Notes: generated from the sequence alone by a model not told the origin. Positions 11,446 to 60,296 are shown, numbered from the stretch's first letter. The stretch is 64,000 bases of DNA from a bacterium (GCA_021787535.1 JAJYLR010000001.1:556321-620320), one strand, 5' to 3'. Translations and numbers: made by a program.

Positions 11446-12066
11446 CTATCTCCTCGATTCGATTATTTTATCAACCATACCATAAGTTTTAGCTTCCCGA
11501 GCGCTCATAAAGTAGTCTCTTTCAACATCCTCGGCAACTTTTTTAACGCCTTGGCCCGTATGTTTGGCTAAAATATTATTCAGATTTTCTTTGAGTCTTC
11601 TTATTTCTTTAGTGTGGATTTCAATATCAGTCACTTGTCCGCCCATACCCATAATATGCGGCTGATGAATCATAATCTGAGAGTTTGGCAGTGAAAATCT
11701 TTTATTCTTTACTCCTGCACCCAGCAGTATAGCCGCGCCGCTCGCAGCAAGTCCAACACAAATCGTTGAAACATCGGGCTTTATATATTGCATGGTGTCA
11801 TAGATTGCCAGTGCTGAAGAGACTGCGCCTCCCGGCGAATTAATGTACAAATTAATATCTTTTTTAGGATCCTCACTTTCTAAAAATAGAAGCTGGGCAA
11901 TAATAATATTTGCCACGGTATCATCGATCGGAGTCCCCAGAAAAACTATGCGGTCTTTCAAAAGCCGCGAATAAATATCATAGGCCCTCTCACCCATGTG
12001 AGTTTTTTCAATGACTGTGGGAATAAGTATTTGGTTTTTAGGTGTCATATTCTTCCTTTCTGTCAT
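11446..12066 (-). CDS. clpP: ATP-dependent Clp protease proteolytic subunit
   Basis: [19 protein letters not shown]...INSPGG(S)...MIHQP... catalytic Ser/His context. The ATG for MTERKNM is preceded by AAGGAGG; the ORF track starts 6 nt earlier at GTG. Confidence 0.9.
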
Positions 12067-12147
12067 TCCCACCCTCCTTTGTCATTCCCGCGCAGGCGGG
12101 AATCCAGAATTTATTTGTATAGATTCCGGATCAAGTCCGGAATGACA
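12061..12147. repeat. Cluster of 3 palindromic repeat units (tgtcattcc / gtcattcccgcgcaggcgggaatcc / gattccggatcaagtccggaatgac)
   Basis: Imperfect hairpin units with GTCATTCC...GGAATGAC ends in the clpP-tig spacer, overlapping the clpP RBS and start. The last unit is the reverse complement of the copy at 56788-56812. Confidence 0.7.
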
Positions 12148-12153
12148 TATGAA

Positions 12154-13440
12154 TTACTTTACGCAATATTCAAATAATTTATCAATTGTCTTTTTTGATA
12201 TAATTCCGTTTTCTATCTGGTGTTCAGTTTCATGATCGGCAAGCTGTTTTTTGACCTCTGCTTTCCTGTCTTCGCCGACTGACGCGAGAATGGTGTCTTT
12301 TTCCGCCTGTATTTCTTTATCTGTCGCTTTTATCTTCTCAAGTTCGGCAATTTTTGACAAGATCAGTCCGTATTTTACCCTTTTTGAAGCATCGCCTTCC
12401 ATTTCATGTTCCAGCTCTTCCCTTGTCTTCTTTGTCATTTCCATATATCTATCCATAGTGATGCCGGATTGGGCCAGATTGGCCTCGGCGTCGTGCCACA
12501 TCTTATGGACTTCCTGATGGATAAGCGCTTTTGGCAGTTCTATTTTGACCATATCCGATATCTTTTTCATTATCTCTTCTTCCAAACGCCTTTTCTCTTC
12601 CATTTCCTTCGCTTCTTCCATGTTTTTCTTAACTCCGGCTTCAAGCTCAATAACGTTTTTGAAAATACCAAACTTTTTGGCAAAATCATCTGTAACTTCC
12701 GGCAGAACCTTCTCGGAGATCGACGCTATTTTTACTTTGAAAGTAACTTTTTCTCCCTGCAATCTTTTCTCATGATAATCTTTCGGGAAAGTCACGTCGA
12801 AAGTTTTCTCTTCGCCTTTTTTCATGCCGACCAGGTTTTCTTCAAAACCGGGTATAAACATGCCGGCGCCAATCGTAATCGGATACTTTTCAGCTTTCGT
12901 TCCTTCAACCGGCACACCGCCTTTCGTCCCTTCAAAGTTAATCTCAGTCCGATCATCTTTTTTAGCCGCTCTTTTGACCTCTTTAAATTCCGCATATCTT
13001 TCACGCAACTCTTGAATAGAATCCTTCATTTCTTTATCCGTTACTTTGGCCGCTACGCGCGAGACTTTGATTTTTTTATAATCCGGCATCGTAAAATCAG
13101 GCAAAATCTCCACTTCCGCTTCAAATGTCAGGCCGCCGGTCGGAGCAAACTTGGTAACTTTAATCTCCGGCCGGCTAACCGTAATCAGGTTTTCTTTTAT
13201 AATGGCATTGTAATAAGCTTCAGGCAGAACAGCATCCATGACTTCCGCATAGAACTTATCCTGTCCCACTTCTTTCTCAACAATAAACTGCGGGGCTTTT
13301 CCCGGCCTGAAACCGGCAATTTTCAAGTTTTTAGCCAGATTCTTATACACTTTTTCAATATGGGGCTTGAGCTCGGTCTCTGGCACATCAACTGTCAGCT
13401 TTACCTTTACTTTCGATAAATCTTCCCTTTTAGTCTGCAT
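12154..13440 (-). CDS. tig: Trigger factor
   Basis: 428 aa; N-terminal ribosome-binding GFRPGKAPQ motif and tig-clpP adjacency. Confidence 0.9.
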   Translation of the reverse strand: MQTKREDLSKVKVKLTVDVPETELKPHIEKVYKNLAKNLKIAGFRPGKAPQFIVEKEVGQDKFYAEVMDAVLPEAYYNAIIKENLITVSRPEIKVTKFAPTGGLTFEAEVEILPDFTMPDYKKIKVSRVAAKVTDKEMKDSIQELRERYAEFKEVKRAAKKDDRTEINFEGTKGGVPVEGTKAEKYPITIGAGMFIPGFEENLVGMKKGEEKTFDVTFPKDYHEKRLQGEKVTFKVKIASISEKVLPEVTDDFAKKFGIFKNVIELEAGVKKNMEEAKEMEEKRRLEEEIMKKISDMVKIELPKALIHQEVHKMWHDAEANLAQSGITMDRYMEMTKKTREELEHEMEGDASKRVKYGLILSKIAELEKIKATDKEIQAEKDTILASVGEDRKAEVKKQLADHETEHQIENGIISKKTIDKLFEYCVK

Positions 13441-13510
13441 TAATCCCCTTTCTCATCAACAAATTTACAAGTTATAAAATTATATAATAAATAAAAACTT
13501 TGATCAATAG

Positions 13511-13540
13511 AAAAGCGCCCCAAAATTTAAGGGCGCTTTT
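13511..13540. terminator. Rho-independent terminator hairpin aaaagcgcccCAAAATTTAAgggcgctttt
   Basis: 8-bp GC-rich stem with A/T tracts on both sides, immediately downstream of the minus-strand small gene ending at 13559. Confidence 0.6.
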
Positions 13541-13558
13541 GATGAAACTGAAGATCAT

Positions 13559-13858
13559 TTAACTCTGTGTGAGTACGCCATACTCAGAGGGTGTCAGCAC
13601 AATCTCCCTCCCCGGTACTTCAACTTTGAACCTTTCTCCGTTTTCGGCGACTTTAACAACAACATCATCACCCATTACCACATAGTCACCTTCTTCGGTT
13701 TTTCTTATTGACGGAAAGTTGCGCTTTCTATATCTCTTCTGAGAGATAAAGGTTGCGCTCTCTCTCCCTGAGAGTATGCAACAACCCGGAGGTGCACCGC
13801 TTATAACAACAGCGAAAACTCCTAAACTAGCCGGCTGGTAATCGTTATGATCGTTCAT
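13559..13858 (-). CDS. Hypothetical small protein (about 100 aa) with consensus promoter, strong RBS and terminator
   Basis: ORF MMNDHNDYQPASLGVFAVVISGAPPGCC...; GAGGAGG sits 5-8 nt before the tandem ATG ATG. It is GC-richer than its surroundings, and no family was recognised. Confidence 0.55.
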   Translation of the reverse strand: MNDHNDYQPASLGVFAVVISGAPPGCCILSGRESATFISQKRYRKRNFPSIRKTEEGDYVVMGDDVVVKVAENGERFKVEVPGREIVLTPSEYGVLTQS

Positions 13859-13909
13859 CATTCCTCCTCGGTGCGCCAAACAAGAATTTATAGAAAACTT
13901 GGTGATCGG

Positions 13910-13938
13910 ATTATACGATAAAACCCTTAAGATGTCAA
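13910..13938 (-). promoter_or_regulatory. Near-consensus sigma70-type promoter (TTGACA-17-TATAAT) for the small gene at 13858
   Basis: On the minus strand: TTGACA (revcomp of 13933-13938), a 17-nt spacer, then TATAAT (revcomp of 13910-13915). Confidence 0.55.
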
Positions 13939-13962
13939 TCGATAGTTCTGTTTAATACAAGA

Positions 13963-13997
13963 GGGCTCGGGAACCAAAAGTTCCCGAGCCCGTTTCA
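13963..13997. terminator. Hairpin gggctcgggaacCAAAAgttcccgagccc + T-rich tail; likely pyrFE terminator
   Basis: 12-bp perfect stem downstream of the pyrE stop (14012); the minus-strand continuation is T-rich (tcttgtatt). Confidence 0.5.
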
Positions 13998-14011
13998 TTT
14001 CAACAGGAGAA

Positions 14012-14754
14012 TTATGCCGCTTCGGACATTGCTTTTTCAAGCGCATCCCACTTGTCTTTCGGTTTCCAGACGACATTGCCTGCTTCGATGTCGTCTTTGA
14101 CGTAAGGATCATCCTGACAATAATCCTTCATCTTGATGCGTACCAACTCTGTGACAGGAATGGATAAACCACCTTTGGTCATATAGGAACCATCCACATC
14201 CATAGACCGATTAAGAAGGCAAATAATTCTCCAAACATTACCTCCTCCGGCCTGAATCAGCGGAACCAGCTTCTCAGTTGTCGAGAAGTTATTGCAAACA
14301 TCCTCGACAATGGCATACCTGACGCCCGGTTCCACCGAGTCGCGAGCGAATACCAGATCCGTTTCCTCGCGCGAAGATTCCGTTGCCAGGGCAGTTACTT
14401 TCTTCTCGGCTTTTATGACGGGTACGCCATAGACGAGGCCGAGGATGGCGGCAAATGAATAACCGCCAAGAGGAGCGCCGCAAAAGGCCTGAATTGCACC
14501 GTAAAAGAGGTGGCCGATATCAAGGTCACGAGCATAATGCTCAAGTATCCAAGGATAGTTATCGGCTTTAGCGAAGTTACAGTAAACTTCACCGACTTTC
14601 TGCTTCTTCACTCCGTTCTCGTCTTCGTATGTGCCGGCATAGCCGACAAGCGGACCAATCCTTTTGCCGGACGCATCTTTCGGACACTCATAGTAACCCT
14701 TGATGGCCCGGAGAGTCCTGAGAGAATCACCCGGAACTATTTCTGCCTTCATTT
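14012..14754 (-). CDS. pyrE: Orotate phosphoribosyltransferase-like protein
   Basis: PRTase signature YAIVEDVCNNFSTTEKLV (VxDVxxTG-like PRPP-binding loop). It sits directly downstream of pyrF, and its start at MKAEIVPG follows AGGAGGAG. Confidence 0.6.
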
Positions 14755-14762
14755 GACTCCTC

Positions 14763-15635: not shown

Positions 15636-15816
15636 CTATCCTTTCAGTTGTTTAATGTACAAAAGCAAAAACCAACCCTCCAGTTGGCTATAAACCCTTT
15701 GCCTCGCAGAAATAATCTACATTATTTTTTGGATTTTCGCAAATTTGGTTTGAATAATTCATTAATCAATCTCTTATGTTATACTTATTTTATAAGGTTA
15801 TAGGGAGAAGATTATT

Positions 15817-16704: not shown

Positions 16705-16713
16705 TTTAAATAT

Positions 16714-17202
16714 TCACATCAAATATTTCTCTTTGACAAATTTATCAAAGCTGAGATCATAAAATTCTTGTATCGGATAAGAAATAAATTTATTTTCTTG
16801 CGGTAATACAACCTCGCTAATGCCGGATTCCATTAAGATTCTGCTGCAATGTGCGCAGAAAGAATCTTCCGTGGAATAGAGTTTATCTCCTTTGGCATAA
16901 GTCGAGTACAGAGTCGCGCCTTTCGGATCATGGCCTTTCTCGAGAGTATCAACGAGCGCTCTTTCTTCCGCGTGCATGGCAAAGCAAAGTTCGGTTTTCA
17001 CGCCTTTCTCTAGCATATCTAAGAGACAGGTTTCACAGCTATGTTGAAGCGGACCGTTATATCCTTCCCCTATTACTTTCCCGTCTTTTACTAAAACCGC
17101 GCCGATTCTTCTAACCGGACAAATCACTTTGCCTGAGATGCCGGCCGCTTTTTCCAAATATTTTTTAGCGCTTTCGCGCTCTTTGCTCTCTAATATTTCC
17201 AT
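16714..17202 (-). CDS. CMP/dCMP deaminase zinc-binding protein (dCMP deaminase/ComEB-like)
   Basis: 162 aa; HAEERAL (H-A-E zinc and catalytic motif) and a downstream CAHCSRIL (CxxC) motif. Confidence 0.7.
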   Translation of the reverse strand: MEILESKERESAKKYLEKAAGISGKVICPVRRIGAVLVKDGKVIGEGYNGPLQHSCETCLLDMLEKGVKTELCFAMHAEERALVDTLEKGHDPKGATLYSTYAKGDKLYSTEDSFCAHCSRILMESGISEVVLPQENKFISYPIQEFYDLSFDKFVKEKYLM

Positions 17203-17247
17203 AAAAAATAATTCAATAGGGATTTTCGTTATTCAAACACCAAACTT

Positions 17248-17334: not shown

Positions 17335-17432
17335 TAAATGTTGAACTATTCTATCATGTATCCTTACCGAAGTTAAGCATAAAAATCAAGTATTGGTTCC
17401 ATTCAATTACCAAAAAATTATGCAAAGAGAAA

Positions 17433-17454
17433 GGGCGCCTTTATTAAGGCGCCC
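17433..17454. terminator. Hairpin gggcgcctTTATTaaggcgccc flanked by A/T runs
   Basis: 8-bp GC stem. The minus-strand reading is followed by tttctctttgcataatttttt, so it could terminate a minus-strand transcript from the ORF-free region 17460-18300. Confidence 0.45.
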
Positions 17455-18030
17455 AGTTGCGATCAATAAAACGTGGGGAAATAAGAGATCGCAATATTCA
17501 CACAGTGCACTTATTACTTAAATTAATGAGATGACTTTCCCCAAAATCATCTCTTTCATCATAGCTTTTCCGTTTCTGTCTTTTTATCTAAGATGGTCTT
17601 CCATCAAGTGTGAAGCACTTTGACCCTTCAGAGTTGGAGTTATAGAACTCGAGCTCGGATCTAGTATTTACAACACTCTTTAAAAGGTCTTAGCATCGAC
17701 AACTACGGTACTTGCTACGACGGCTACTGATCTTTTCTTTTGCCCCTAACAATCTACCGTCGGCCGGAGTGCAAGTGATTTTGCCTACTCAAGACCGATT
17801 TCGGTCAAGGGAAACTGGCGCAATTCTCTTACAGCTACTCGAGCCCAATTGGTAAAGGGTATGTGACGACAAAAGTACCCAATCAGTAACACTAAATATG
17901 ATACACTAACTTCAAAATTTTGTCAACATTTTTCTGGCTCTCTAACCTTTAGCGTGGTAAATTCGTGCTTACTTGAGCACAAAAAAGTTGTCCGGACAAG
18001 TTTTAGAGTAAATTAATTTTTTTGCGTCTT

Positions 18031-18108
18031 GTCATTCTGGCTTGTCCAGAATCAATTTTTAAGATTTAAGGAAAAGGATTCCGGTCTCCTAATCGTCGCC
18101 AGAATGAC
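18031..18108. repeat. Composite palindromic repeat gtcattctggcttgtccagaatc ... gccagaatgac
   Basis: An inner hairpin attctgg/ccagaat plus an outer inverted repeat gtcattctggc/gccagaatgac 55 nt apart. The same 23-mer recurs at 21171, 55912 and 60215. Confidence 0.65.
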
Positions 18109-18448
18109 AATACTCATAAGATTTATTATTGCCAAGATTTACCACGCTAATCGGCGAAGAGTCCCATTTTTCTGATTTTTTAATTCCCTAAATTAAAAAG
18201 TCCCTTACGAGATCAAAAAACGTTTCGCATTAATTAGTGAAAAATGAAAAACAAACTAGAGTCTTCTTCCTTAGCAACTTACTAGCTTATCAACCATATT
18301 TCTTATTTAAAAGGCGCGGGGTCGCCGCGCCTTTCCGCTCGGATAGCGGCAATCCTGCTTATAAAGATAAGCACATATAAATTACTTATCCACCACCCTT
18401 AGATAAATTTTACAGCCGCCAAAAATCCAAAACAAGTATACAAAAATT

Positions 18449-18480
18449 AGCGGAGACTTACGTAAGTCTCCGCTTTTGTT
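18449..18480. terminator. Bidirectional terminator agcggagacttACGtaagtctccgct + TTTT
   Basis: 11-bp perfect stem with T tracts on both strands, immediately after the stop of the minus-strand 77-aa gene at 18480. Confidence 0.65.
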
Positions 18481-18713
18481 TAGCCATTTTCTGCTTCCTT
18501 GATGATCTCTTCCGGAATGTCCAATTTGTGTTTTTTGCAAAAATCACTTAACGACATTCCCGAATCAGCATCAATCCATATTGCCTCCAAATCAGGACAA
18601 TCATCGATACCCCAGAGGAGTATTTCCAGAACCTTCTCGGCACTTTCTATAGAGATATTCCATTTTTGGCTGGCATACGATGCAAGGGTTGTTTCGTCCA
18701 CCTTCATGCCCAT
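18480..18713 (-). CDS. Hypothetical small acidic protein (77 aa)
   Basis: ORF MGMKVDETTLASYASQKWNISIESAEKVLEILLWGIDDCPDLEAIWIDADSG...; 13-nt spacing to the upstream gene and shared terminator. Confidence 0.5.
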   Translation of the reverse strand: MGMKVDETTLASYASQKWNISIESAEKVLEILLWGIDDCPDLEAIWIDADSGMSLSDFCKKHKLDIPEEIIKEAENG

Positions 18714-18725
18714 TTCGCTTCCCCC

Positions 18726-20631: not shown

Positions 20632-20981
20632 TTTTTACTCTCTAGGACTTGGATCCTTATCCCAAGCGCACCATATTTTTCCTCTTTTTCCTTCGGATAG
20701 TAGTTCACATAAGTTGATGATATAAAATCTTCCCTGTTCCAGTTTCTAAAATGCCTTTCGCCCAGCAAATCATAAAGTTCGCCAAACGTTTTGCAAGATA
20801 TTAGTTCAACTACCTCAACCAAGAGTTTTTCAGCTAAATCAGGTCTTTTTAAGAACTCAATTTTGTCGCCAATCCTAAGTTTCTGCCTTTTCTCATCATT
20901 AAGCCGCACTTCGACAGTCTTTTCTCCGCTTTTCAGCTCTTCGAAGGGTCGTGCATTTAATCTCATATAATGTGTTTTCAT
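20628..20981 (-). CDS. ASCH domain protein
   Basis: 117 aa; MKTHYMRLNARPFEELKSGEKTVEVRLNDEKR... resembles the ASCH (PUA-like) beta-barrel N-terminus. 4-nt start/stop overlaps with both neighbours. Confidence 0.55.
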   Translation of the reverse strand: MKTHYMRLNARPFEELKSGEKTVEVRLNDEKRQKLRIGDKIEFLKRPDLAEKLLVEVVELISCKTFGELYDLLGERHFRNWNREDFISSTYVNYYPKEKEEKYGALGIRIQVLESKK

Positions 20982-21418
20982 AAACTTACCTGATTCTTAA
21001 TTTGCTCAAATTTACTTTCTCCGATTCCCGGCACTTTTTTCAAATCTTCCAGTACTTTAAATAATCCGTTTTGGTTGCGCCAATCAATGATTTTTTGTGC
21101 CGTTGCCGGACCGATGCCCTGTAGCTTATCTAAATCTTGCAAATCGGCGGTGTTTATATTAATTTTTGCCGTCATTCTGGCTTGTCCAGAATCTGTCTGC
21201 CCGCCCTTTACTTCAGAATTTGTCTGAATGTCAGTCTTTTGCGGCTGGACAATTTTAATCGGCTCTTTGCCGTCATCCGAATATTTAATAAAGAGCAGTC
21301 CTGTCCCGCCGATAATACCGATCACCAGTAAAATGCCTATGTTATTATAGATTCTCTGTCTTCTATCCTTTTTTTGATCTTGATCCATAAAACCTTTAAT
21401 ATTCAATGCCGAAAACAT
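20978..21418 (-). CDS. comEA: ComEA-like helix-hairpin-helix DNA-binding protein
   Basis: N-terminal TM segment and C-terminal INTADLQDLDKLQGIGPATAQKIIDWRNQNG.F..LEDLKKVPGIG (tandem HhH). Contains an in-frame copy of the 23-nt repeat encoding DSGQARMT. Confidence 0.75.
   Translation of the reverse strand: MFSALNIKGFMDQDQKKDRRQRIYNNIGILLVIGIIGGTGLLFIKYSDDGKEPIKIVQPQKTDIQTNSEVKGGQTDSGQARMTAKININTADLQDLDKLQGIGPATAQKIIDWRNQNGLFKVLEDLKKVPGIGESKFEQIKNQVSL
21171..21193. repeat. Palindromic repeat gtcattctggcttgtccagaatc inside comEA coding sequence (in frame)
   Basis: Identical 23-mer to 18031 and 55912. On the minus strand it translates as ...DSGQARMT... within the ComEA ORF. Confidence 0.7.
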
Positions 21419-23464: not shown

Positions 23465-25528
23465 TTATTCCAAACTTGCTACCCCGTCATATTTTTTAAT
23501 TTTCTCATCAAGCAGCGGAAAATCGTCTAGGTTATTCTTTTCGAGGAATTTTTTGGCCTCGGTTTTGGTACGTTTGATTAGTTCCACATTCATCAAGTTT
23601 TTAGTGTTTATATCAGGAAGGCCATGCTGGCGTTCACCGAGAACTTCACCCGGCCCGCGGATTTCCAGATCTTTTTCTGCTATTTCAAACCCATTGCTTG
23701 TTTTAGTTATCGCATCCAGTCTCTTTTCAACTGTTTCCGACCGGCTATCAGTAAAAAGGAAACAATAAGATTGAAATTTACCCCGTCCGACCCGGCCGCG
23801 AAACTGGTGAAGTTGGGCCAGACCAAACCTGTCCGCGCCTTCGATGATCATAATAGTCGCATTCGGCACATCGACGCCAACTTCGACTAGTGAGGTGGAT
23901 ATTAAAATATTCGTCTTGCCTCCGGCAAAGCCATTCATGGTTTTTTCTTTTTCTTCCGGCCGCATTTTGCCATGTAGCATGGCGATCTTTAGATCAGGAA
24001 ATATCATTCTAGAGAGCCGCTCATATTCTGCCGTTACGCTTTTTAGCTCCATCATTTCCGAGTCGTCAATTAATGGGCATATAACGAATATTTGCCGGCC
24101 TTTTTTCACCTCTCGGCGCATAAACTCATATGAATCCTCTTTCTTCTCGGGAGGAATGACAAATGTCCCGACTTTCTTTCTGCCCGGAGGCATCTCATCG
24201 ATAATCGAAATATCAAGGTCGCCGTAAACCCCAAGCGTTAAAGTTCTGGGGATCGGTGTGGCCGACATTGAAAGAAAATGCGGCATCGTGCCATCTGAGC
24301 CGCTTCTTTTTTTGAGAGCCGATCTCTGGCTAACCCCGAAACGATGCTGTTCGTCAACGATGACAAATGCCAGATTCCAAAACTCAACCTCTTCTTTTAA
24401 AACCGCATGAGTGCCGACCAGAACCTGCACTTCCCCTTCCTTTAATCTCTTTAAAATGTGTTTTCTTTCCGATTTTTTAGTTTTTCCAGTTAGAAGCTCG
24501 ACATCGACCTCAAAAGGTTCAAGCATTTTTTTCAAGCCCTCATAATGCTGGGTGGCCAGGATTTCAGTCGGCGCTATAAAAGCGGTCTGAAAACCGTCCG
24601 AGGCAACCATGAGAGCCGCCATAGCCGCCACCACGGTTTTGCCTGAACCGACATCCCCTTCCAGCAATCTGTTCATGGGGACAGGCCTCTCCAAATCCCG
24701 AATAATTTCCCAAGCCGACTTTTTCTGGGCATTTGTCAGCTTAAAACCGAGAGATTTCACAAAACTTTTCGAAAGATCTTCGTTAAATCGGATAGCTATC
24801 GCTCTGTTTTGGTCTAGCGCTTTCCGCTGGTTCAAAATAGCAACCTGAAGCAGGAACATTTCATCAAAGTTTAGACGGTCTCGAGCTCTTTCCAGTTGGA
24901 ATGAATTATCTGGAAAGTGAAGCTGGCGGATCATGGCCGAGTAACCGATCAAACCCTGGCGCTTTAGAACCTCCGCCGGCAGATATTCTTTGAGCGAATA
25001 GATAACTTTAACAAGTTTAGACATCTCATTTCTGAGCCATTTCGAGCTTAAACCCTCCGTTTCTTTATAGACCGGGATAATTTTTCCCAGATGTTTTTGC
25101 TTGTCTGACTTTTTTTCGTAAGCCGGAGACATCATCTGAGCCGTACCGAAGTTGTTTTCCACTCTTCCGGCCAGAAGCACCTCATCGCCCTGCTTCATAT
25201 TTTTTATAAGGAATGGCTGATTAAACCAGACAGCTTTTAGAGTCCCTGTTTTATCGGCGATAATCGCTTCTGTGATCGTCATTCTTTTGCGAGCCGAGCG
25301 TTTGTTGCCGATACTCCAAATACTGCCTTCTACGCAATATGCGCCCGGCGGCCGCACCTCGGCGATGGATGTGATTTTCGAGAAATCCTCCCACTTTCTA
25401 GGTAAATACAAAAGCAGATCCTCGACTGTCTCTACGCCGAGTTTTGCCAGTTTCTCCTGATATTTTGAGCCCACCCCCTGGAGTTCAGTTACTTTTGTTT
25501 TGAGAGTAATAGTCATTTTAATTTCCAA
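23465..25528 (-). CDS. recG: ATP-dependent DNA helicase RecG
   Basis: 687 aa; N-terminal wedge/OB domain, Walker A GDVGSGKT, DEQHRFG (DExH) and helicase C motifs. Confidence 0.92.
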   Translation of the reverse strand: MEIKMTITLKTKVTELQGVGSKYQEKLAKLGVETVEDLLLYLPRKWEDFSKITSIAEVRPPGAYCVEGSIWSIGNKRSARKRMTITEAIIADKTGTLKAVWFNQPFLIKNMKQGDEVLLAGRVENNFGTAQMMSPAYEKKSDKQKHLGKIIPVYKETEGLSSKWLRNEMSKLVKVIYSLKEYLPAEVLKRQGLIGYSAMIRQLHFPDNSFQLERARDRLNFDEMFLLQVAILNQRKALDQNRAIAIRFNEDLSKSFVKSLGFKLTNAQKKSAWEIIRDLERPVPMNRLLEGDVGSGKTVVAAMAALMVASDGFQTAFIAPTEILATQHYEGLKKMLEPFEVDVELLTGKTKKSERKHILKRLKEGEVQVLVGTHAVLKEEVEFWNLAFVIVDEQHRFGVSQRSALKKRSGSDGTMPHFLSMSATPIPRTLTLGVYGDLDISIIDEMPPGRKKVGTFVIPPEKKEDSYEFMRREVKKGRQIFVICPLIDDSEMMELKSVTAEYERLSRMIFPDLKIAMLHGKMRPEEKEKTMNGFAGGKTNILISTSLVEVGVDVPNATIMIIEGADRFGLAQLHQFRGRVGRGKFQSYCFLFTDSRSETVEKRLDAITKTSNGFEIAEKDLEIRGPGEVLGERQHGLPDINTKNLMNVELIKRTKTEAKKFLEKNNLDDFPLLDEKIKKYDGVASLE

Positions 25529-25587
25529 TTACCAATATCCAATGACCAATCAAGTTCCAATTTTTTAATTTAATAATTGAAAAATGT

Positions 25588-25713
25588 GTCATTCCGACTG
25601 ACACCACGCCAGTGGCGAATGGAGGAATCCTTTTCCTCTAGTAACTTACCAACTTATAAACTCTTTCAAGGGATTTCTCGACTCGTCGCTCCGCGAAGTC
25701 GTTCGAAATGACA
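25588..25713. repeat. Two palindromic repeat units (gtcattccgactgacaccacgccagtggcgaatggaggaatcc; ggatttctcgactcgtcgctccgcgaagtcgttcgaaatgaca) upstream of recG
   Basis: Same GTCATTCCGA...GGAGGAATCC family as 30699, 55004, 56480 and 56750. They are preceded by an AT-rich CCAAT array (25535-25568). Confidence 0.7.
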
Positions 25714-30051: not shown

Positions 30052-30177
30052 TTCTTATTATAATTGCTTGATATGCTGGATTACTTCGCTTGTTATAATT
30101 GTTGAAGTTGTATTAAAGAAGGTCGAACCTCACCTCTAACGAGGTTCAATCTTCACAGAAAAAATTATTTTTCATCG

Positions 30178-30578: not shown

Positions 30579-31232
30579 CTACTGAGACACAAATTTATTG
30601 TCTTTGATTGTAAACCGCCAAAGCTTATCGCGGTAAATGTCGGCATAGTCTATGCCAATGCGTTTTGAGGTTTCGATTTTAAATTTATTAAAGAAAGAGA
30701 TTCCTCCACTCGTCGCTCTGCGAAGTCGGTCGGAATGACAGAGAAAAGGATCCTCAACCCAAACGCGATCTGAATCCGTAATGTCTTCATCGTAGAATGT
30801 TTTATCCAGATTAAGGGCGGCGCACAGTTTACCCGGCCCTTTCATGAAATCTTTGTCCGAGCGAACCCGGCCGAAATTTCTTAAATTTTCTCTGGCAAAT
30901 TCAATTCCGCCAACCGGTTCAAGGGCGCGGATTAAAACTGCCTCCGGCACATGTTCCTTTGCAGTTACAATATTGAAGTTATAGTACATCCCATAAATCA
31001 GATAGATGTAAATATGGCCGGCTGCACCATACATGACTTTGTTGCGCTCGGTTTTGCCATTACGCGCGTGGCAAGCCAGGTCTTCTTCGCCGACATAGGC
31101 TTCAGTCTCGACAATTTTGCCGCTAATAATACCTTGATCGGTTTTTCTGACTAATATTTTACCTAGGAGTTCCGGCGCCACCTCTAGCACCGGCCGCTCA
31201 AAGAATGTTCGATCCAATTTTGAATTTTGCAT
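30579..31232 (-). CDS. DNA-3-methyladenine glycosylase (Mpg/AAG family)
   Basis: VETEAYVGEEDLACHARNGKTERN...YGAAGHIYIYLIYGMYYNFNIV matches the Mpg family. The C-terminus contains an in-frame palindromic repeat. Confidence 0.8.
   Translation of the reverse strand: MQNSKLDRTFFERPVLEVAPELLGKILVRKTDQGIISGKIVETEAYVGEEDLACHARNGKTERNKVMYGAAGHIYIYLIYGMYYNFNIVTAKEHVPEAVLIRALEPVGGIEFARENLRNFGRVRSDKDFMKGPGKLCAALNLDKTFYDEDITDSDRVWVEDPFLCHSDRLRRATSGGISFFNKFKIETSKRIGIDYADIYRDKLWRFTIKDNKFVSQ
30699..30740. repeat. Palindromic repeat gattcctccactcgtcgctctgcgaagtcggtcggaatgaca inside the 3mA-glycosylase coding sequence (in frame)
   Basis: Same family as 25671-25713; translated as LCHSDRLRRATSGGI within the ORF. 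Confidence 0.7.
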
Positions 31233-39789: not shown

Positions 39790-39895
39790 AGCAATTTCCA
39801 ATTCCCATTCAATATCCAATGTTTTAATTTTAGATTTTTTAAATTTAGATTTGATTGGAAATTAGATATTGGTAATTGGTAATTGAAATTACCAC
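39790..39895. repeat. AT-rich inverted array of CCAAT / ATTGG pentamers upstream of nusA
   Basis: Left half ccaattcccattcaatatccaat, right half ttgattggaaattagatattggtaattggtaattg. Similar arrays occur at 25535, 51037 and 55076. Confidence 0.5.
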
Positions 39896-50999: not shown

Positions 51000-51087
51000 A
51001 AAATCAATTTTAGCAGAATAGGCGTTTTTTTGAAATTTGAAAATTAGAAATTGATTGAAAATTGAGACTTGAAAATTGGAAATTTCA

Positions 51088-52655: not shown

Positions 52656-52663
52656 GAGGAAAT

Positions 52664-53467: not shown

Positions 53468-53486
53468 CTATTACGAGAATTAACCT

Positions 53487-53958: not shown

Positions 53959-54236
53959 ATTTTGAAATTCTATTTTCTAAAACCTAAACAAATTCTAATG
54001 GCCAAATCCCAAAAAATCAAACCAGAAACGTCATGCGGCTATCGGATCGAAAAGCGAGCCTGGGAGTGAACGAACCTTTAAAAATAATTTTGTCTGAGCT
54101 TGCGAGTTAATTTTTTTAAAGATGAGAGAACGAACCAGACGACACTTTGAAATACCGCCTAAGCCGCGATTTTTACTATACTTTTTCTAAAAAAGTAGAA
54201 AATATTTCAAATAAATAAGATGTGAATTTGGGGGGG

Positions 54237-54989
54237 CTATTTTCCCGTTATTTCAATCGATTCAATCACGACCTTTTCCTTCGGTTTCGACTCTTCCCCG
54301 CCCGCGCTTTTCTCTACCGGCGTGGCGGCTATTTTCTGAACTGTGTCCATACCGCTTGTCACATTACCGAATATAACATAATTTTTAGGCAATTTACCAC
54401 CCGAGTAGTCGCTTGTCATAATGAAAAATTGCGAGCCGTTGGTGTCTTTGCCGGAGTTTGCCATAGCGATTGTTCCGGGAAGATAATCTTTTGTGATCGG
54501 TTCATCGGGAAATTTGTAGCCAGGCCCGCCGGTACCATCACCTTTCGGGTCTCCGCCCTGAATCATAAAGTCTTTAATGATTCTATGAAATGTCAGACCG
54601 TCGTAAAATCCGCTTTTGGCCAGAAATACGAAATTGTTTACTGTCTTCGGCGTGTCTTTGGCGTCAAGCTCGATAGTAATATCACCATCGCTCGTCTTCA
54701 TGACCACCGTGTACTTTTTGCTTGGGTCTATCACCATCTCCGGATATTTATCGTAATGTTTCACGCTTGCCTCCTTTTTTATCGCGCTCAATTTGCTAGT
54801 TGTTTGGTTAGCCGCCTTCTTGTTTGGCATAAATTTAGCGTAACCATAAGCCCCCACAAGCCCCAACATAATCACTACAAATCCCACAGAAAAAATCTTC
54901 AATAATTTTTTTCGATTTTCCCTTTTCCGTTTTTCCTCCTTAACCCTTTCGATCTTTCTTTCTAGCTTGAGTTTTTGATTTCTTCCCAC
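54237..54989 (-). CDS. Peptidyl-prolyl cis-trans isomerase, cyclophilin type, membrane anchored
   Basis: Cyclophilin signature FHRIIKDFMIQGGDP, with a basic N-terminus and a TM segment. Confidence 0.88.
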   Translation of the reverse strand: MGRNQKLKLERKIERVKEEKRKRENRKKLLKIFSVGFVVIMLGLVGAYGYAKFMPNKKAANQTTSKLSAIKKEASVKHYDKYPEMVIDPSKKYTVVMKTSDGDITIELDAKDTPKTVNNFVFLAKSGFYDGLTFHRIIKDFMIQGGDPKGDGTGGPGYKFPDEPITKDYLPGTIAMANSGKDTNGSQFFIMTSDYSGGKLPKNYVIFGNVTSGMDTVQKIAATPVEKSAGGEESKPKEKVVIESIEITGK

Positions 54990-55003
54990 AGTTTTCTCCT
55001 AAT

Positions 55004-55051
55004 TACACTTGCTGTCATTCCGAGCGATCCGACAACCGCCGGACGACAAGC
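55004..55051. repeat. Palindromic repeat gtcattccgagcgatccgacaaccgccggacgacaagccgaggaatcc
   Basis: GTCATTCCGAGCGA...GAGGAATCC family member in the PPIase upstream region, followed by a CCAAT/ATTGG array at 55076-55175. Confidence 0.65.
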
Positions 55052-55178
55052 CGAGGAATCCCTTGGCTTTTAATTTACAATTTACAAGCCCCAATTTTCA
55101 ATGAATGAGTCAATGTTTCAATTTTCAAATTTATTAATTGGGACTTGATTGGTTATTAGTTATTGGAAATTGGTCATT

Positions 55179-56669
55179 CTAAACCTTTGGTTTATATTTT
55201 CTCCACTCTTCATTCCCTGTTGCTTTTTCGAACTGATGCGCAACATTCAGTATCTTCGCCTCTTCAAAATGTCCTCCAATAATCTGTATCCCGATCGGCA
55301 ATTTATCAGTTGAAAATCCAGCCGGGACAGAGATTGCCGGAAGACCTGCCAGACTTACCGGAACCGTGAAAACGTCCGCCAAATACATAGAAACAGGATC
55401 TGCCTTTTCGCCAATTTTAAACGCCGGGGTCGGCGCCGTCGGTGTCAGTATCACGTCAACGTGCTCAAATGCCTTTATAAAATCATCATGAATTAATCTC
55501 CTGACTTTGGCCGCCTTCATAAAATATGCATCGTAGTAGCCGCTTGATAAAACATAAGCCCCAAGCATAATTCTCCTCTTTGCCTCGTCGCCGAATCCTT
55601 CATCGCGTGTTTTGAAGTAAGAATCAATTAAATCCTTTGAATTTTTGGCTGAAAAGCCGTATTTTACCCCATCATATCGACCCAAGTTTGAGGATGTTTC
55701 GGCTGTCATTATGATGTAGTACGCCGCCAGCGCATATTCCGTATGAGGCAGGCTGATTTCAATAACTTCTGCTCCCATTTTTTCAAGGGTTAACAAAGAT
55801 TGCTTAAACACCTCGCCAACCTCATCAAATAGTCCCAGCCCAAAATACTCTTTTGGTACGCCTATTTTTAGGCCTTCGATGCCCTTATTCAAATCCTTGG
55901 TGAAATCGGTTGTCATTCTGGCTTGTCCAGAATCGTCCTTTAGTGTGGTCGCATCCTTCGGATCTTCCCCTGCAATCACATTCAAAACTATTGCCGCATC
56001 CTCCACTGTCTTCGTTATCGGCCCGGGACAATCCAGCGATGAGCCCATGGCAATCAGCCCATAACGCGAAACCCTGCCGTATGTCGGCTTTAGGCCTACC
56101 ACCCCGCAGAAACTCGCCGGCTGGCGAATAGATCCGCCGGTGTCTGTGCCAATGGAATATGGCACTTCGCCTGCCGCTACAGCTGCCGCCGAGCCTCCTG
56201 AAGAACCGCCGGAAACCCGGGCCAAATCCCAAGGATTGGGCGTCACACCATAATCGGAGTTCTCAGTTGAGGAACCATGCGCCCAAGCATCACAGTTGTT
56301 TTTTCCGACAACTATTGCTCCGGAGTCTTTTAATTTCTTAACTACGGTCGCATCATACGGCGGAACAAAGTTATCCAGCATCTTGGCACTCGCCGTCGTC
56401 CGCAAATTCCTCGTACAAATCACATCCTTAATCCCCACCGGAATACCTTGCAGAGGACTGTCCTCTGCACTACCGCCTTTGTCATTCTGAGCGACTTCCT
56501 GAAAGGACGAGTCGAAGAATCCCTTTCCCTCGACATCTTCCGCCGTAAGTGTCGTCACGAAAGCATGCAGCTTCGGCTCAACTTCCTTAATCCTACTCAA
56601 ACAAGCAGACAAAATCTCCCGCTTATCCTCTTTTTCTAATTCTTTAATTGGTAAATCTGTAATTTTCAT
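55179..56669 (-). CDS. gatA: Glutamyl-tRNA(Gln) amidotransferase subunit A
   Basis: Amidase signature ([20 protein letters not shown]...T.AS). Start assigned to [11 protein letters not shown]. Carries two in-frame palindromic-repeat insertions. Confidence 0.92.
55912..55934. repeat. 23-nt palindromic repeat gtcattctggcttgtccagaatc inside gatA (in frame, encodes DSGQARMT)
   Basis: Identical to the copies at 18031 and 21171. Confidence 0.7.
56480..56522. repeat. Palindromic repeat gtcattctgagcgacttcctgaaaggacgagtcgaagaatcc inside gatA 5' region (in frame, encodes [14 protein letters not shown])
   Basis: GTCATTC...GAATCC family. It replaces the normally variable loop between the N-terminal helix and the GIP(V/I)(A/G)IKD motif. 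Confidence 0.7.
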
Positions 56670-56749
56670 TTCTCTTTCCCTAAATAGGTCGGATCCTTGC
56701 GTGCTCGCCAGGCCCGACCTCCCAGCAAGCAATTTTTTATTATTCTCTT

Positions 56750-56855
56750 GTCATTCCGACCAAAGTGGAGGAATCCCTTTCCTATTTGTCATTCCGGACT
56801 TGATCCGGAATCTATATAAATCATTCCTGGATCCTGAATCAAGTTCAGGATGACA
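56750..56855. repeat. Cluster of three palindromic repeat units in the gatC-gatA spacer
   Basis: gtcattccgaccaaagtggaggaatc; gtcattccggacttgatccggaatc; tcattcctggatcctgaatcaagttcaggatgac. Confidence 0.7.
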
Positions 56856-56859
56856 TAAT

Positions 56860-57156
56860 TTATTCCAACACCGACTTTACTTTTATAAATCCATCCTCAT
56901 GTTTCGGCGCTTCTGATATAAGCTCTGCCGGCGTACCTTCAATCTTCTCAACTTTATCTTCACGCATCTCGTTTCTCTGCTCTATCCCCGCCGCCATCGG
57001 CTCAACTTTATCCGTATCCACTTCGTTTAATTTTTCTACATAACCTAAAATATCCGCCAAGTCTTTCTGGTACTTGGTAATTTCCTTTTCGGTCAGCCCA
57101 ACCCTCGCCAGCTTCGCCAAATATTCAACTTCTTCTTTTGATATTTTTCCCACCAT
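56860..57156 (-). CDS. gatC: Glutamyl-tRNA(Gln) amidotransferase subunit C
   Basis: 98 aa; ...LAKLARVGLTEKEI..YQKDL..IL.YVEKL.EVDT..VEP... typical GatC. Confidence 0.85.
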   Translation of the reverse strand: MVGKISKEEVEYLAKLARVGLTEKEITKYQKDLADILGYVEKLNEVDTDKVEPMAAGIEQRNEMREDKVEKIEGTPAELISEAPKHEDGFIKVKSVLE

Positions 57157-57166
57157 AACTCACTAA

Positions 57167-57733
57167 TTATACCTTATTTTGTTCTGGTATTAAATTTAAT
57201 CCCCAAAATTCATCTAGGGTTTTCTCAAATTTTTTTCTCAAGCCATGGGTATCATTCTCAAGATCATTGAGATACTCATTCATGCCATCAATTAAATCCT
57301 GTCCAAAGTCTTTAACACTAATATTCAAACACTGAGCTTGCCCCATTTTAGTCATTTTTAGATGAGATTGTTTATTGCTGTAGTGTATTCTCCAGGTATA
57401 AATATTATCTTGATAATCCGTTAGTGGCGCTGGCATCCCTGAATGTACTAATTTATGACGATATATCTGCTGAACTAATTTCATTTGATCCTTAGAGTAA
57501 TGCATATATTTAACCATAAATTTTTTAGCGTTATCCGCTTCTTTTCTTTTGTCATACCGACCAGTTAAGTAAGCTCCCATCAAGTCAATATTTGAGAAAC
57601 AATAAAGTAAAGCTACATAGGGAGCTGCTTCAATATGTGAATTTAAACAAAGAGAAACAATTTGGCTAATCGATTCCATCCTTAATTGTATTTGAGCAGC
57701 CCCAAAATATTTATGTGGATCATTAATATTCAT
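57167..57733 (-). CDS. Hypothetical protein (188 aa) embedded between ligA and gatC
   Basis: Intact ORF, 10 nt from gatC and 2 nt from ligA; AT-rich; no family recognised. Confidence 0.5.
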   Translation of the reverse strand: MNINDPHKYFGAAQIQLRMESISQIVSLCLNSHIEAAPYVALLYCFSNIDLMGAYLTGRYDKRKEADNAKKFMVKYMHYSKDQMKLVQQIYRHKLVHSGMPAPLTDYQDNIYTWRIHYSNKQSHLKMTKMGQAQCLNISVKDFGQDLIDGMNEYLNDLENDTHGLRKKFEKTLDEFWGLNLIPEQNKV

Positions 57734-57735
57734 GT

Positions 57736-59718
57736 TTATTTCACCATCTTCAAGAACTCTTGTTCGTTTAGAATTTTAATTCCTAATTGTTCGGCTTTGG
57801 CGGCTTTGGAGCCAGGATTATCACCAACTACTACAAAATCAGTGGTTTTGGAAACTGAGCCGGATGCGCTGCCGCCATTTGAACGAATCATTTCTTCCGC
57901 CTCATCTCGAGTTAATCCAGAGAGTGAACCGGTGATGACAAATGTCTTGCCGTCCAGCTTATGACGAACTTGCTCGTAGCGAATCTCCACCCCATTTTGC
58001 TGTAATTTCTTGACCAGCTCCAAATTCTTTTTGTTATGAAACCAGTTGTAAATACTTTCTGCTCCGACTGTGCCAATACCTTCAACTCCTTCAAAATCTT
58101 CCTTCTCCGCCTTTTCCAAGTCTTCCAACTGAGCAAATTTTCTGCTCAAATCTGACGCTGTGATAGCGCCGATGTGGCGGATGCCGAGCGCATTTATAAA
58201 CCGCCTGAATGATACCTTTTTGCGCTCATCAATTGACTCGACTAGGTTCTTGGCAGAGGTTTCGGCAAATCTCTCAAGCGGTGTCAGATCGCCCTCGGTA
58301 AGCGCGAAGAGGTCGGCCGCATCCTCAATCAATCCTTCTTCAATTAGCTGCGTAACAATTTTTTCGCCGAGGCCTTCTATATTAAACGCGCTTTTTGAGA
58401 CAAAGTGGCCTATCTTTTGAAGTTCAATGGCAAAGCAGTTGTCGGCCACACATCTTGCTACCGCCTCACCTTCCGGCTTAACAATCGGCCCGCCGCAAAT
58501 CGGACAAGTTTTAGGCATTTTGAAGACTTTTTCTTGTCCTGTGCGCAGATTGGGCAGCGATTGCACCACTTCCGGGATAATATCTCCTGCCTTTTGGATA
58601 ACCACCGTGTCACCGATACGGATGTCTTTCCTGTGGATTTCATCTTCGTTATGAAGTGTCGCCCGAGAAACGGTTGTGCCGGCAACTTTTACCGGCGTGA
58701 AGACAGCAAAGGGCGTCACTGCACCGGTCCGACCAACGTTAACCCTGATGTCTTCCAGTTTTGTTGTTACTTGCTCGGCCGAGAATTTGTAAGCCGCTAC
58801 CCCGCGAGGAGCTTTTCCGACTATACCAAGCCGGCGAACTAAGTCTTCGGAATTTACATTGACCACGGCTCCATCGGTTTGATACGACAGTTTCTTACGC
58901 TTGTCTTCCCACTCTTCTAAAAATTTCTCGGCATCTTTCATAGTCTTGCAATGCCGTGAGTTCGGCTCGACTTTGAATCCTAGCTTTTTTGCCACCTCGT
59001 GTTCTTCCTGATGGGTTTGAATGCCTTCCTTATAAATCGCCCATGCCATGAACTTGAGTTTTCTCTCGGCTACAATGCGCGCATCCAGCTGGCGAAGTGT
59101 GCCGGCCGCCAAGTTTCGAGGATTGGCATATGTTTTCTCTCCCTTTTTCTCCTGCTCGGCATTAACTTTCTCGAATTGTTTATAGTCCATGTAAACCTCA
59201 CCGCGCACCTCCACATCGACAGCTTGGGTTAGCTTCAGAGGAATGCTTTCGATAGTACGAATATTCTGCGTCACATCCTCACCAATCTGGCCGTCGCCTC
59301 TCGTCGCCGCTGTTTTTAAAAATCCTTTTTCATAAGTTAAATAAACGCTTAGTCCGTCCAGTTTCAGCTCCGCATAATAGTCGAGTTTCTCGTTTGGAAT
59401 TAATTTTTGAATCCTCTTTTCCCATTCTTCGAGTTCGCCGAAATCAAACACATCATTGAGTGAAAGTCCGGGGTGAGCATGACGAATTTTTTGAAACTTT
59501 GATAATGGTTTGCCGGCTACCCTTTGAGTCGGCGAATCGGGAGTGACGAGTTCAGGATACTTCTCTTCAATTTGTGAAAGCTCGTGCATCAGGGATGTTT
59601 TGGCCGCTTCGGACACAATCTCCTTATCCAAAACATGGTAGGCGTATCTGATGCGATCAATTTCTTTTCTGAGTTTTTCCGCCCTTTTTCGCGCCTCAAT
59701 TAGAGAAATCTTTTCCAT
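57736..59718 (-). CDS. ligA: NAD-dependent DNA ligase
   Basis: KxDG adenylation motif (ELKLDGLSV), OB domain, 4-Cys zinc finger (CPICGGP...C..C), HhH and C-terminal BRCT domains. Start assigned to MEKISLIEARK. Confidence 0.93.
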   Translation of the reverse strand: MEKISLIEARKRAEKLRKEIDRIRYAYHVLDKEIVSEAAKTSLMHELSQIEEKYPELVTPDSPTQRVAGKPLSKFQKIRHAHPGLSLNDVFDFGELEEWEKRIQKLIPNEKLDYYAELKLDGLSVYLTYEKGFLKTAATRGDGQIGEDVTQNIRTIESIPLKLTQAVDVEVRGEVYMDYKQFEKVNAEQEKKGEKTYANPRNLAAGTLRQLDARIVAERKLKFMAWAIYKEGIQTHQEEHEVAKKLGFKVEPNSRHCKTMKDAEKFLEEWEDKRKKLSYQTDGAVVNVNSEDLVRRLGIVGKAPRGVAAYKFSAEQVTTKLEDIRVNVGRTGAVTPFAVFTPVKVAGTTVSRATLHNEDEIHRKDIRIGDTVVIQKAGDIIPEVVQSLPNLRTGQEKVFKMPKTCPICGGPIVKPEGEAVARCVADNCFAIELQKIGHFVSKSAFNIEGLGEKIVTQLIEEGLIEDAADLFALTEGDLTPLERFAETSAKNLVESIDERKKVSFRRFINALGIRHIGAITASDLSRKFAQLEDLEKAEKEDFEGVEGIGTVGAESIYNWFHNKKNLELVKKLQQNGVEIRYEQVRHKLDGKTFVITGSLSGLTRDEAEEMIRSNGGSASGSVSKTTDFVVVGDNPGSKAAKAEQLGIKILNEQEFLKMVK

Positions 59719-60163
59719 AAGTAAATTATAGCGTAAAAAACACCGATTAACCACTGCCAATGCACTGATTTTTTTAGATTCCTTTGCCACTTTTTTCTCC
59801 GTTCCGGTAGTAAATCTCCATTTTGCTATTGACTTCTTAATAGAGATGACGTAATGTGTGAATATTCGTGCTTTTACTTCATTTTTTCGCTAGTATTTCT
59901 TGTAGCAATTGAACCTTTCATTTCAGCGTCGCGCTGGCACAATTCCTTTGCTTTCTCTTTATTGGATTGCTAGTGTAACCAGCAAAATAAAGCTTGAACG
60001 GAAACAGAGGGCTGACCCTCACATCTAATGATGTTAGGGCCGTAGGTTAAAACGTGTTTGCGAGACGGTTTTACCCGACGCCTACTGAATCTGTTCAATT
60101 GAGGTCTATGAAGCAGCTCTCTCCAGCTAACTTCCTCTAGGCCTCTTTTTCTTGCTCTTCTAA

Positions 60164-60196
60164 AGAAATCTTTTCCATAAAGCTATTATAACAAAC
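60164..60196 (-). pseudogene. Duplicated fragment of the ligA start region (RBS + first ~6 codons; ORF ends after 13 codons)
   Basis: agaaatcttttccataa + [A/T]-rich upstream matches 59706-59722 (17/17 nt). It would encode MEKISLEEQEKEA*, versus the ligA N-terminus MEKISLIEARKRA. Confidence 0.4.
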
Positions 60197-60214
60197 TTAA
60201 CCCTCTAATTCATC

Positions 60215-60296
60215 GTCATTCTGGCCTGCCCAGAATCCCGTAGAAATAGATCCTGGTCAAGCCAGGATGACAAAAAAACGGGATCCGAAATGACAT
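60215..60296. repeat. Composite palindromic repeat (gtcattctggcctgcccagaatc + atcctggtcaagccaggatgac + gggatccgaaatgac)
   Basis: Three consecutive hairpin units with GTCAT/ATGAC ends; the first is a 2-mismatch variant of the 23-mer at 18031. Confidence 0.65.

Follow-up and report, generated by a model that had tools for sequence, protein, structure and literature searches.

CGTC-tagged REP units, probable motifs of an Ssn-type nuclease, in a housekeeping region of a small-genome bacterium

Short palindromic repeats with a CGTC tag were described as a class of repetitive extragenic palindromic (REP) sequences by Di Nocera, De Gregorio and Rocco in 2013 (PMC3733652). A unit of this class has a CGTC or TGTC tag, a stem of 8-9 bp that starts with A-T, a loop of 4-5 nt and a 3-nt tail close to CCA. 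Head-to-head dimers predominate, tail-to-tail dimers are rare, and intragenic copies occur. The class includes dRS3 of Neisseria as well as RPE-6 (a CGTC-1 unit) and RPE-4 (a CGTC-4 unit) of Rickettsia, and a dedicated transposase for CGTC REPs was not known (PMC3733652). Here we analyze a dispersed family of short imperfect palindromes in a stretch of 64,000 nt of bacterial DNA (GCA_021787535.1 JAJYLR010000001.1:556321-620320, hereafter the window).

A protein partner of such repeats was reported by Chenal et al. in 2025 (PMC11893778). These authors extended dRS3 to a 28-nt motif, NTS, with the consensus CGTCATTCCCGCGMAVGCGGGAATCYRG. SsnA, a single-domain GIY-YIG nuclease of 94 aa, binds NTS only as single-stranded DNA. 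The binding is strand-specific, and the cut falls a few nucleotides upstream of the hairpin (Neisseria, Wolbachia). The three nucleotides before the palindrome are critical for cleavage and the C after it for binding. Homologues of ssnA are flanked by related motifs (SRM) across phyla, with the pattern HGTCWYN(0-2)YYVSBRHN(0-5)WNVSBRGN(0-2)RNCYNB. Of the genomes with more than 200 SRMs, 81% have an ssnA homologue (PMC11893778).

It is likely that the repeats of the window belong to the CGTC-tagged REP superfamily, that is, to the NTS/SRM motifs, and that they are recognized by an Ssn-type nuclease encoded elsewhere in the genome. Such a nuclease would recognize hairpins in any DNA that has become single-stranded, for instance in the course of replication, repair or DNA uptake. 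The units, mostly arranged as head-to-head dimers, would have multiplied and would still turn over. The family is thus already described and has a candidate protein partner, which the initial annotation of the window did not recognize. That annotation was right to regard the repeats as a REP/MITE-like dispersed family found both in spacers and in genes; they can now be specified as CGTC-tagged REPs.

Number and anatomy of the units

The estimate of at least 15 copies in 64 kb was borne out. The motif GTCATTCYG occurs 12 times in the window against an expectation of 0.83, and 0 of 100 shuffled sequences reached 12. We also applied a strict detector, which accepts a site only if it has a (C/T)GTCAT tag, if a perfect stem of 5 bp or more begins directly after GTC, and if a C directly follows the stem. 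It finds 16 sites, compared with 0.64 ± 0.78 (maximum 3) in 200 first-order Markov simulations. With an imperfect unit (18075-18109, minus strand) and a truncated one (60279-60295, minus strand) the total is 18 units. The density of about 0.28 per kb in the window is comparable to that in pathogenic Neisseria. The units are listed below; bit scores and E-values refer to a covariance model described in the next section.

12062-12079, plus strand: half-unit GTCATTCCCACCCTCCTT (tag and left arm only), 19 nt 5' of the next full unit and close to the clpP Shine-Dalgarno sequence, on its upstream side
12080-12107, plus strand: canonical unit TGTCATTCCCGCGCAGGCGGGAATCCAG, 8-bp stem, 4-nt loop; left dimer half in the tig-clpP spacer; -8.9 kcal/mol, z -4.3; 45 bits, E 5e-11
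12119-12147, minus strand: unit TGTCATTCCGGACTTGATCCGGAATCTA, 8-bp stem, 5-nt loop; right dimer half, ends 8 nt past the tig stop; 22 bits, E 4e-4; identical to a unit directly upstream of an Ssn gene (locus L200)
18030-18056, plus strand: unit with 7-bp stem ATTCTGG and loop CTTGT; left dimer half in an ORF-free gap beside tRNA-Leu (ORF, open reading frame); z -3.9
18075-18109, minus strand: imperfect unit GTCATTCTGG...CCGGAATC with one G-T stem mismatch and a 14-nt core; right dimer half; weak fold, z +0.4; 10.6 bits
21170-21196, plus strand: single unit in a comEA-like gene, in frame as DSGQARMT, in the linker before the HHH domain
25587-25632, plus strand: long unit in which a 5-bp outer stem, ATTCC/GGAAT, encloses a structured core; left half of the 125-nt dimer in the tyrS/recG spacer
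25669-25713, minus strand: long unit with core CGACTTCGCGGAGCGACGAGTCG; right half of the tyrS/recG dimer
30696-30740, minus strand: long unit in a methylpurine-DNA glycosylase gene, in frame as LCHSDRLRRATSGGIS
55013-55063, plus strand: long single unit in the spacer between gatA and a cyclophilin gene
55911-55937, plus strand: single unit inside gatA, in frame as DSGQARMT
56480-56524, plus strand: long single unit in the variable N-terminal part of gatA, in frame, 14 residues
56749-56779, plus strand: medium unit with 5-bp outer stem and a core of 12 nt; opens the cluster of three units in the gatC-gatA spacer; 16.3 bits, E 0.02
56787-56815, plus strand: unit TGTCATTCCGGACTTGATCCGGAATCTA, 8-bp stem, 5-nt loop; left dimer half; 28/28 identical to the L200 unit beside the Ssn gene
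56827-56855, minus strand: unit with stem ATCCTGAA/TTCAGGAT and compensatory changes; right dimer half, ends 5 nt past the gatC stop; z -2.6
60214-60240, plus strand: unit with stem ATTCTGG and loop CCTGC; left dimer half upstream of ligA
60246-60272, minus strand: unit with stem ATCCTGG/CCAGGAT; right dimer half; z -3.2
60279-60295, minus strand: truncated half-unit GTCATTTCGGATCCCG, followed 23 nt later by a full unit on the same strand

Some earlier placements had to be revised. The copy listed at 55004 is real, but its start lies at 55014. The cluster 12061-12147, thought to overlap the clpP ribosome-binding site, ends just upstream of the clpP Shine-Dalgarno sequence and so lies beside that site. 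The supposed copies at 2403 and 60416 have neither tag nor hairpin and belong to a two-copy 21-mer.

The layout of a unit is an unpaired (C/T)GTC, a stem that opens with A-T-(T/C)-C, a loop or longer core, a complementary arm that ends with G-(A/G)-A-T, and an unpaired C. GTCAT is carried by 18 of the 18 window units. In 16 units from the window and two relatives the tag is TGTC in 13 cases and CGTC in three. The 3' C never varies, nor do positions 1, 2 and 4 of the stem, while positions 3, 5 and 6-8 vary together with compensatory changes of their partners. The first base of the tail is always C, and tails such as CTC, CTA, CCA, CCC and similar ones are seen.

Folding confirms the palindromes for the short form of the family. 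The nine short units (core of 23-25 nt) are perfect 7-8-bp DNA hairpins with -5.1 to -8.9 kcal/mol and z from -2.6 to -4.9; four of them combine a stem of 8 bp with a loop of 4 or 5 nt, and five a stem of 7 bp with a loop of 5 nt. In six units of a long or medium form (27-47 nt) the outer stem, ATTCC/GGAAT, is 5 bp long and encloses a structured core of 9-33 nt. The remaining three are the imperfect unit 18075-18109 and the half-units at 12062 and 60279.

Ten full units form five head-to-head dimers with the tags outside (12080/12147, 18030/18109, 25587/25713, 56787/56855 and 60214/60272), and the partners are 11-40 nt apart. There are no tail-to-tail dimers among the window units. An extra unit or half-unit flanks one side of three of the five pairs. 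The exact reverse complementarity reported earlier was found between 12122-12146 and 56788-56812. The similarity extends over 49 nt at 90% and joins the tig-clpP and gatC-gatA dimers, so the spacers of pairs are partly conserved. Also as reported, one 23-mer, GTCATTCTGGCTTGTCCAGAATC, is identical at three loci (18031, 21171 and 55912). Among single units the tagged strand is the plus strand in five of six cases, a number too small for a test of strand bias.

Confinement of the family to the window can be ruled out. One further partial copy lies in the 10 kb past the window end (L121), both syntenic relatives studied (L124, L125) have the family, and the motif GTCATTCYGGN5CCRGAATC is present in more than 119 genome stretches. 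The phyla in which the motif with the ATTCYGG stem occurs include Nitrospirota, Acidobacteriota, Patescibacteria, Gemmatimonadota, Gammaproteobacteria, Ignavibacteria, Chloroflexota and others. Only 18 viral contigs carry it. No Rfam family matches the units when they are searched as queries.

Kinship with the motifs that flank Ssn genes

The canonical unit 12080-12107 equals the NTS consensus except for its first base. Bases that are critical for SsnA, GTC for cleavage and the 3' C for binding (PMC11893778), are invariant in the window units. More generally, the window units and NTS share GTC before the palindrome, ATTC...GAAT and C after it, and both form arrays and inverted pairs. The difference is that most window units depart from NTS in the stem (ATTCTGG, ATTCCGGA, ATCCTGG, ATCCTGAA) or contain a long core.

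The comparison with the CGTC REPs of 2013 gives a similar picture. The TGTC/CGTC tag, the A-T stem start, the CCA/CTA tail, the head-to-head dimers and the intragenic copies are shared. The unit at 12080 is CGTC-1-like (8-bp stem, 4-nt loop), and the units at 12119, 56787 and 56827 are CGTC-2-like (5-nt loop). The window adds 7-bp stems and the long form, and its phylum is outside the five listed in 2013.

Units of this kind lie next to Ssn-type genes in several genomes. The single gonococcal ssnA homologue is embedded in 11 NTS units. In Azospirillum lipoferum there are units on the flanks of a GIY-YIG gene, and in Photobacterium sp. GJ3 the GIY-YIG gene is followed by eight units identical to those of the window; the first 27 nt of the unit 12080-12107 are identical (27/27) to units beside the Photobacterium gene. 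Two homologues come from Patescibacteria. One of them, P0335 (Candidatus Taylorbacteria), is 61% identical to the gonococcal gene (E 2e-30) and has a half-unit and a head-to-head dimer of TGTCATTCCCGCGAAAGCGGGAATCCA upstream of its gene; the other, P0287, has units on both sides.

The association extends to metagenomes. A tagged hairpin lies within 200 nt of the gene in 67 of the 80 metagenome loci that encode relatives of P0335. Hairpin and gene are a median of 53 nt apart on the upstream side and 43.5 nt on the downstream side, and 48 loci have hairpins both before and after the gene. In one locus (L200) the unit directly upstream of the gene is 28/28 identical to positions 56787-56814 of the window, and other loci of this set carry stems of the ATTCTGG type. 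Thus the variant units of the window, too, are associated with Ssn genes.

We built a covariance model from 17 Ssn-flanking units of five other genomes (N. gonorrhoeae, Azospirillum, Photobacterium and two Patescibacteria). Its top 11 matches are window units, with 45, 22, 22, 16.3, 15.9, 15.3 bits and lower. The best match has an E-value of 5e-11, and five more units have E < 0.05. Judging from these likenesses, an Ssn enzyme would bind the unit variants of the window. There are hints that each stem variant (ATTCTGG, ATTCCGGA, ATCCTGG, ATTCCCGC) points to a distinct enzyme specificity.

One more arrangement is common to the window and to Ssn loci. A half-unit is followed by a full unit on the same strand, 19-23 nt apart, at 12062/12081 and 60294/60271 in the window, and at 3889/3909 in L137 and 178/199 in L200. 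In these two other genomes the arrangement stands directly upstream of the Ssn genes. It may be a footprint of the mechanism by which CGTC REPs are copied.

Turnover, placement and alternative explanations

Copies inside genes had been reported before, and we found four, all of which keep the reading frame: two in gatA, one in a comEA-like gene and one in a methylpurine-DNA glycosylase gene. The intragenic share is 4 of 18 copies (22%), whereas 2% was reported for N. meningitidis. The gene gatA occupies 55179-56732 on the minus strand. Both solved GatA structures have a 6-residue gap exactly at the DSGQAR encoded by the unit 55911-55937. The comEA-like gene (20978-21418, minus) contains the same 23-mer, which is again translated as DSGQARMT. 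For the glycosylase (gene at 30579-31232, minus) the Pfam match spans 204 residues of protein for 181 positions of the profile, and the PDB alignments stop at residue 163, the exact start of the unit. The Rickettsia element RPE-1, at about 100-150 nt, is much longer than the window units and unrelated to them in sequence. RPE-4 and RPE-6 resemble the window units in that both groups lie in frame in genes of conserved proteins as extra loops; their link in sequence is the statement made in PMC3733652.

In an alignment of 16 GatA orthologues, 14 are 78-86% identical to the window protein. Four orthologues (P0007, P0009, P0012, P0013) have no insert at the two main sites. DSGQARMT is present in P0004 and P0008, and inserts of several units, 17-55 residues long, are present in P0002, P0005, P0006 and P0015. 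P0011 has DSRFRGNDK, which is a translated unit of the ATTCCCGC type. The unit 56480-56524 is found in P0001 and P0002 and not in P0007 and others. The inserts occupy the same two to four sites across orthologues 75-86% identical. Such presence and absence at the same hot spots implies a fast turnover of the repeats, and the alignment shows the inserts to be recent and recurrent events. In the spacers the situation is similar: the two syntenic relatives have the family in the same spacers, with different units. Most likely, units settle in two kinds of place: directly past a stop codon, or in frame within surface or linker parts of proteins that tolerate them.

The placement after stop codons is also what one would expect of host regulatory signals, i.e., terminators or mRNA-stabilizing hairpins that are kept by selection and are neither mobile nor linked to a nuclease. 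Four clusters lie between co-directional genes. Three of them end 5-25 nt past the upstream stop codon (tig, tyrS, gatC), and the fifth cluster ends about 200 nt past it. Such a placement was taken as a hint of a role at the RNA level in PMC3733652, and the units would fold as RNA. Nevertheless we regard this explanation as improbable. The terminator scan found a T-run-like tail after only one unit. A bidirectional terminator-like hairpin, AAAAAAGAGAGCCGAAACCTCTCTTTTTT, lies at 60317-60345 and adjoins the repeat cluster 60214-60295; with a separate terminator there, the units themselves are not terminators at that place. The four in-frame copies inside coding sequences, the identical 23-28-mers at unrelated loci and in unrelated phyla, and the different units in orthologous spacers of relatives all speak against selected regulatory signals. 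A secondary effect of the units at the RNA level is possible.

The doublets of 59-125 nt could instead be miniature inverted-repeat transposable elements (MITEs), i.e., deletion derivatives of an insertion sequence (IS) with the ends GTCATTC.../...GAATGAC that were moved by a DDE transposase. Their inverted ends and partly conserved spacers would fit, and an unrelated metagenome-assembled genome (L035) has a counterpart of one entire dimer (83% identity over 81 nt). In the window, though, single units are as common as doublets and identical to doublet arms. Each arm is itself a hairpin with compensatory changes, and the doublets are heterodimers of unlike arms. No target-site duplication is visible, no transposase is present in the window, and we consider this origin quite improbable.

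Classical REPINs, which are doublets of GTAG-type REPs moved by a RAYT of the IS200/IS605 family, are also a poor description of the family. The likeness is in design: inverted doublets with a 17-40-nt spacer have the REPIN/BIME layout (PMC3733652), and both systems have tagged hairpins that are recognized as single-stranded DNA and one repeat-flanked protein gene per genome. The components are of different families, with a GTAG tag and an HUH Y1 transposase in REPINs and a (C/T)GTC tag and a GIY-YIG nuclease here. Every window unit carries (C/T)GTC and none GTAG. CGTC units never flank a RAYT or IS200 gene (PMC3733652), identical units do flank GIY-YIG genes, and no Y1 transposase is among the window ORFs scanned. 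A REPIN origin is therefore highly improbable.

Errors of assembly or binning, for example chimeras formed at repeats, are conceivable since many public Ssn-bearing contigs are very short, so that such repeats do break assemblies, but they can be practically dismissed here. Ten units recur without a single differing base in ENA and Logan contigs: one MEGAHIT contig from ENA has 100% identity to 54034-58486 with seven units, and ENA and Logan contigs reproduce the cluster 60215-60294. The intragenic copies keep the reading frame in conserved proteins.

Membership in the CGTC-tagged REP superfamily with recognition by an Ssn-type nuclease has its own difficulties, and the following points weigh against it. 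The published SRM pattern fits one of the 18 units (12080-12107), and the five units with a 7-bp stem and the six long ones are outside the published CGTC and SRM definitions. The six long units fold weakly (z from -0.7 to -1.8). Comparison of filled and empty GatA sites as DNA revealed no target-site duplication and no clean empty site or boundary. Mobility is inferred from polymorphism, which demonstrates turnover and not a mechanism. Limiting of transformation by Ssn was shown only in Neisseria (PMC11893778). Finally, neither the 64-kb window nor the next 10 kb nor the 21-kb syntenic stretches of the two relatives yielded any GIY-YIG gene.

The part of this genome that was read amounts to about 74 kb (the window and 10 kb beyond its end), and the largest contig of the genome measures 636 kb. 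A Pfam scan of about 50 window ORFs gave no Ssn, no transposase and no Y1 transposase/RAYT. A phmmer search of all six-frame ORFs of at least 40 aa gave no Ssn either; two consensus sequences served as queries besides real Ssn proteins (Azospirillum, Photobacterium, Taylorbacteria). The 119 genome loci with the motif also contain no GIY-YIG gene, which is expected if a genome has hundreds of units and one gene. There was no Ssn gene in the 18 viral stretches with the motif, and a Sphingomonas plasmid match (H4) has units and no GIY-YIG gene nearby. We infer that the host genome probably encodes an Ssn outside the part read, given that 81% of genomes rich in SRMs have a homologue (PMC11893778).

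A bolder version of the same reading is doubtful. According to it, the hairpins are actively copying today, including into essential genes, where they would make fast-evolving peptide loops at hot spots used again and again, the half-unit architecture would be the footprint of this process, and incoming single-stranded DNA might be policed. Such policing, as in Neisseria, is possible in view of the dependence on DNA uptake that is ascribed to bacteria of this kind.

The novelty of the window lies in the host lineage, in the variant and long types of units, and in the large fraction of copies that lie in frame in essential genes, at hot spots that are polymorphic. A class known mainly from Proteobacteria (dRS3/NTS, RPE, CGTC REPs) is placed in a Patescibacteria/WS5-like genome of well under 1 Mb. 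About one fifth of the copies are in frame in housekeeping proteins (GatA, a DNA glycosylase, a ComEA-like protein) of a gene-dense genome. The filled and empty GatA sites in close relatives provide a natural series for working out how the element moves, a question open since 2013. In addition, Ssn nucleases are of biotechnological interest.

Genomic context and other features

The window is a housekeeping region. Its genes include rpsG, rpsL, rpoC, rpoB, clpP, tig, recG, tyrS, murB, a clpB-like gene, nusA, dnaE, gatB, gatA, gatC and ligA, and nearly all window genes are encoded by the minus strand. Each 4-kb bin has a negative GC skew, which together with the strand bias of genes places the window within one replichore. 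A 635,771-bp contig encodes a protein with 100% identity to GatA of the window. The closest relatives of this GatA that bear a name are from candidate division WS5 bacterium (79%) and Patescibacteria group bacterium (78%), and thus the host is an uncultivated small-genome bacterium of the WS5/Patescibacteria neighbourhood.

Two gaps between genes deserve mention. Mechanical ORF calling left 1.4 kb at 17335-18725 without an ORF longer than about 80 aa. This gap is beside tRNA-Leu and holds the dimer 18030-18109. Rfam gave no credible match for it, and it may represent a decayed gene or an RNA not yet described. The other ORF-free gap, 59791-60494, has no Rfam match. A 30-nt direct repeat, 83% identical, occurs at 59701-59730 and 60161-60190 and includes the likely ligA start ATGGAAAAGATTTCT. 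The gap thus holds a second copy of the ligA 5' end, 460 nt upstream.

There is a second, unrelated repeat family in the window. It consists of arrays of ATTGGNN heptamers, e.g., ATTGGTAATTGGATATTGGTCATTGG, at 25520-25585, 39819-39892, 51028-51084 and 55072-55178. The arrays are always intergenic, beside gene starts or ends and in both orientations, and they form the long inverted pairs I1, I2, I4 and I7. With at most one mismatch ATTGGWAATTGG has nine matches against 1.6 expected. The 21-mer AATCGCTTCGCTTRTTGGAAT, mentioned above, is a separate small intergenic repeat without CGTC tag or hairpin. It is exact at 2404-2424 and 60417-60437 (0.02 expected), and weaker relatives are at 30071 and 49145.

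Two kinds of candidate for a GIY-YIG gene were rejected. Two weak phmmer matches, in the 10 kb past the window end and in L124, are translated tRNA genes. A UPF0213-like consensus finds small GIY-YIG genes of candidate phyla radiation bacteria, in or beside tRNA genes and without units; it represents the wrong subfamily and was replaced by an Ssn-type consensus. In other Patescibacteria this UPF0213-like gene (85-88 aa) lies between apparent tRNA halves, as if in a tRNA intron, with no CGTC units nearby. Its positions are as follows.

L127, 3001-3258: UPF0213-like gene between apparent tRNA halves
L129, 740-1006: UPF0213-like gene between apparent tRNA halves
L130 and L131, 3001-3267: UPF0213-like gene between apparent tRNA halves

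A cluster of tRNA genes stands upstream of a DUF553 gene past the window end, at about 7270-7480 of L121 (about 66.2-66.4 kb counted from the window start). It is conserved in a relative, at 1600-2040 of L124.

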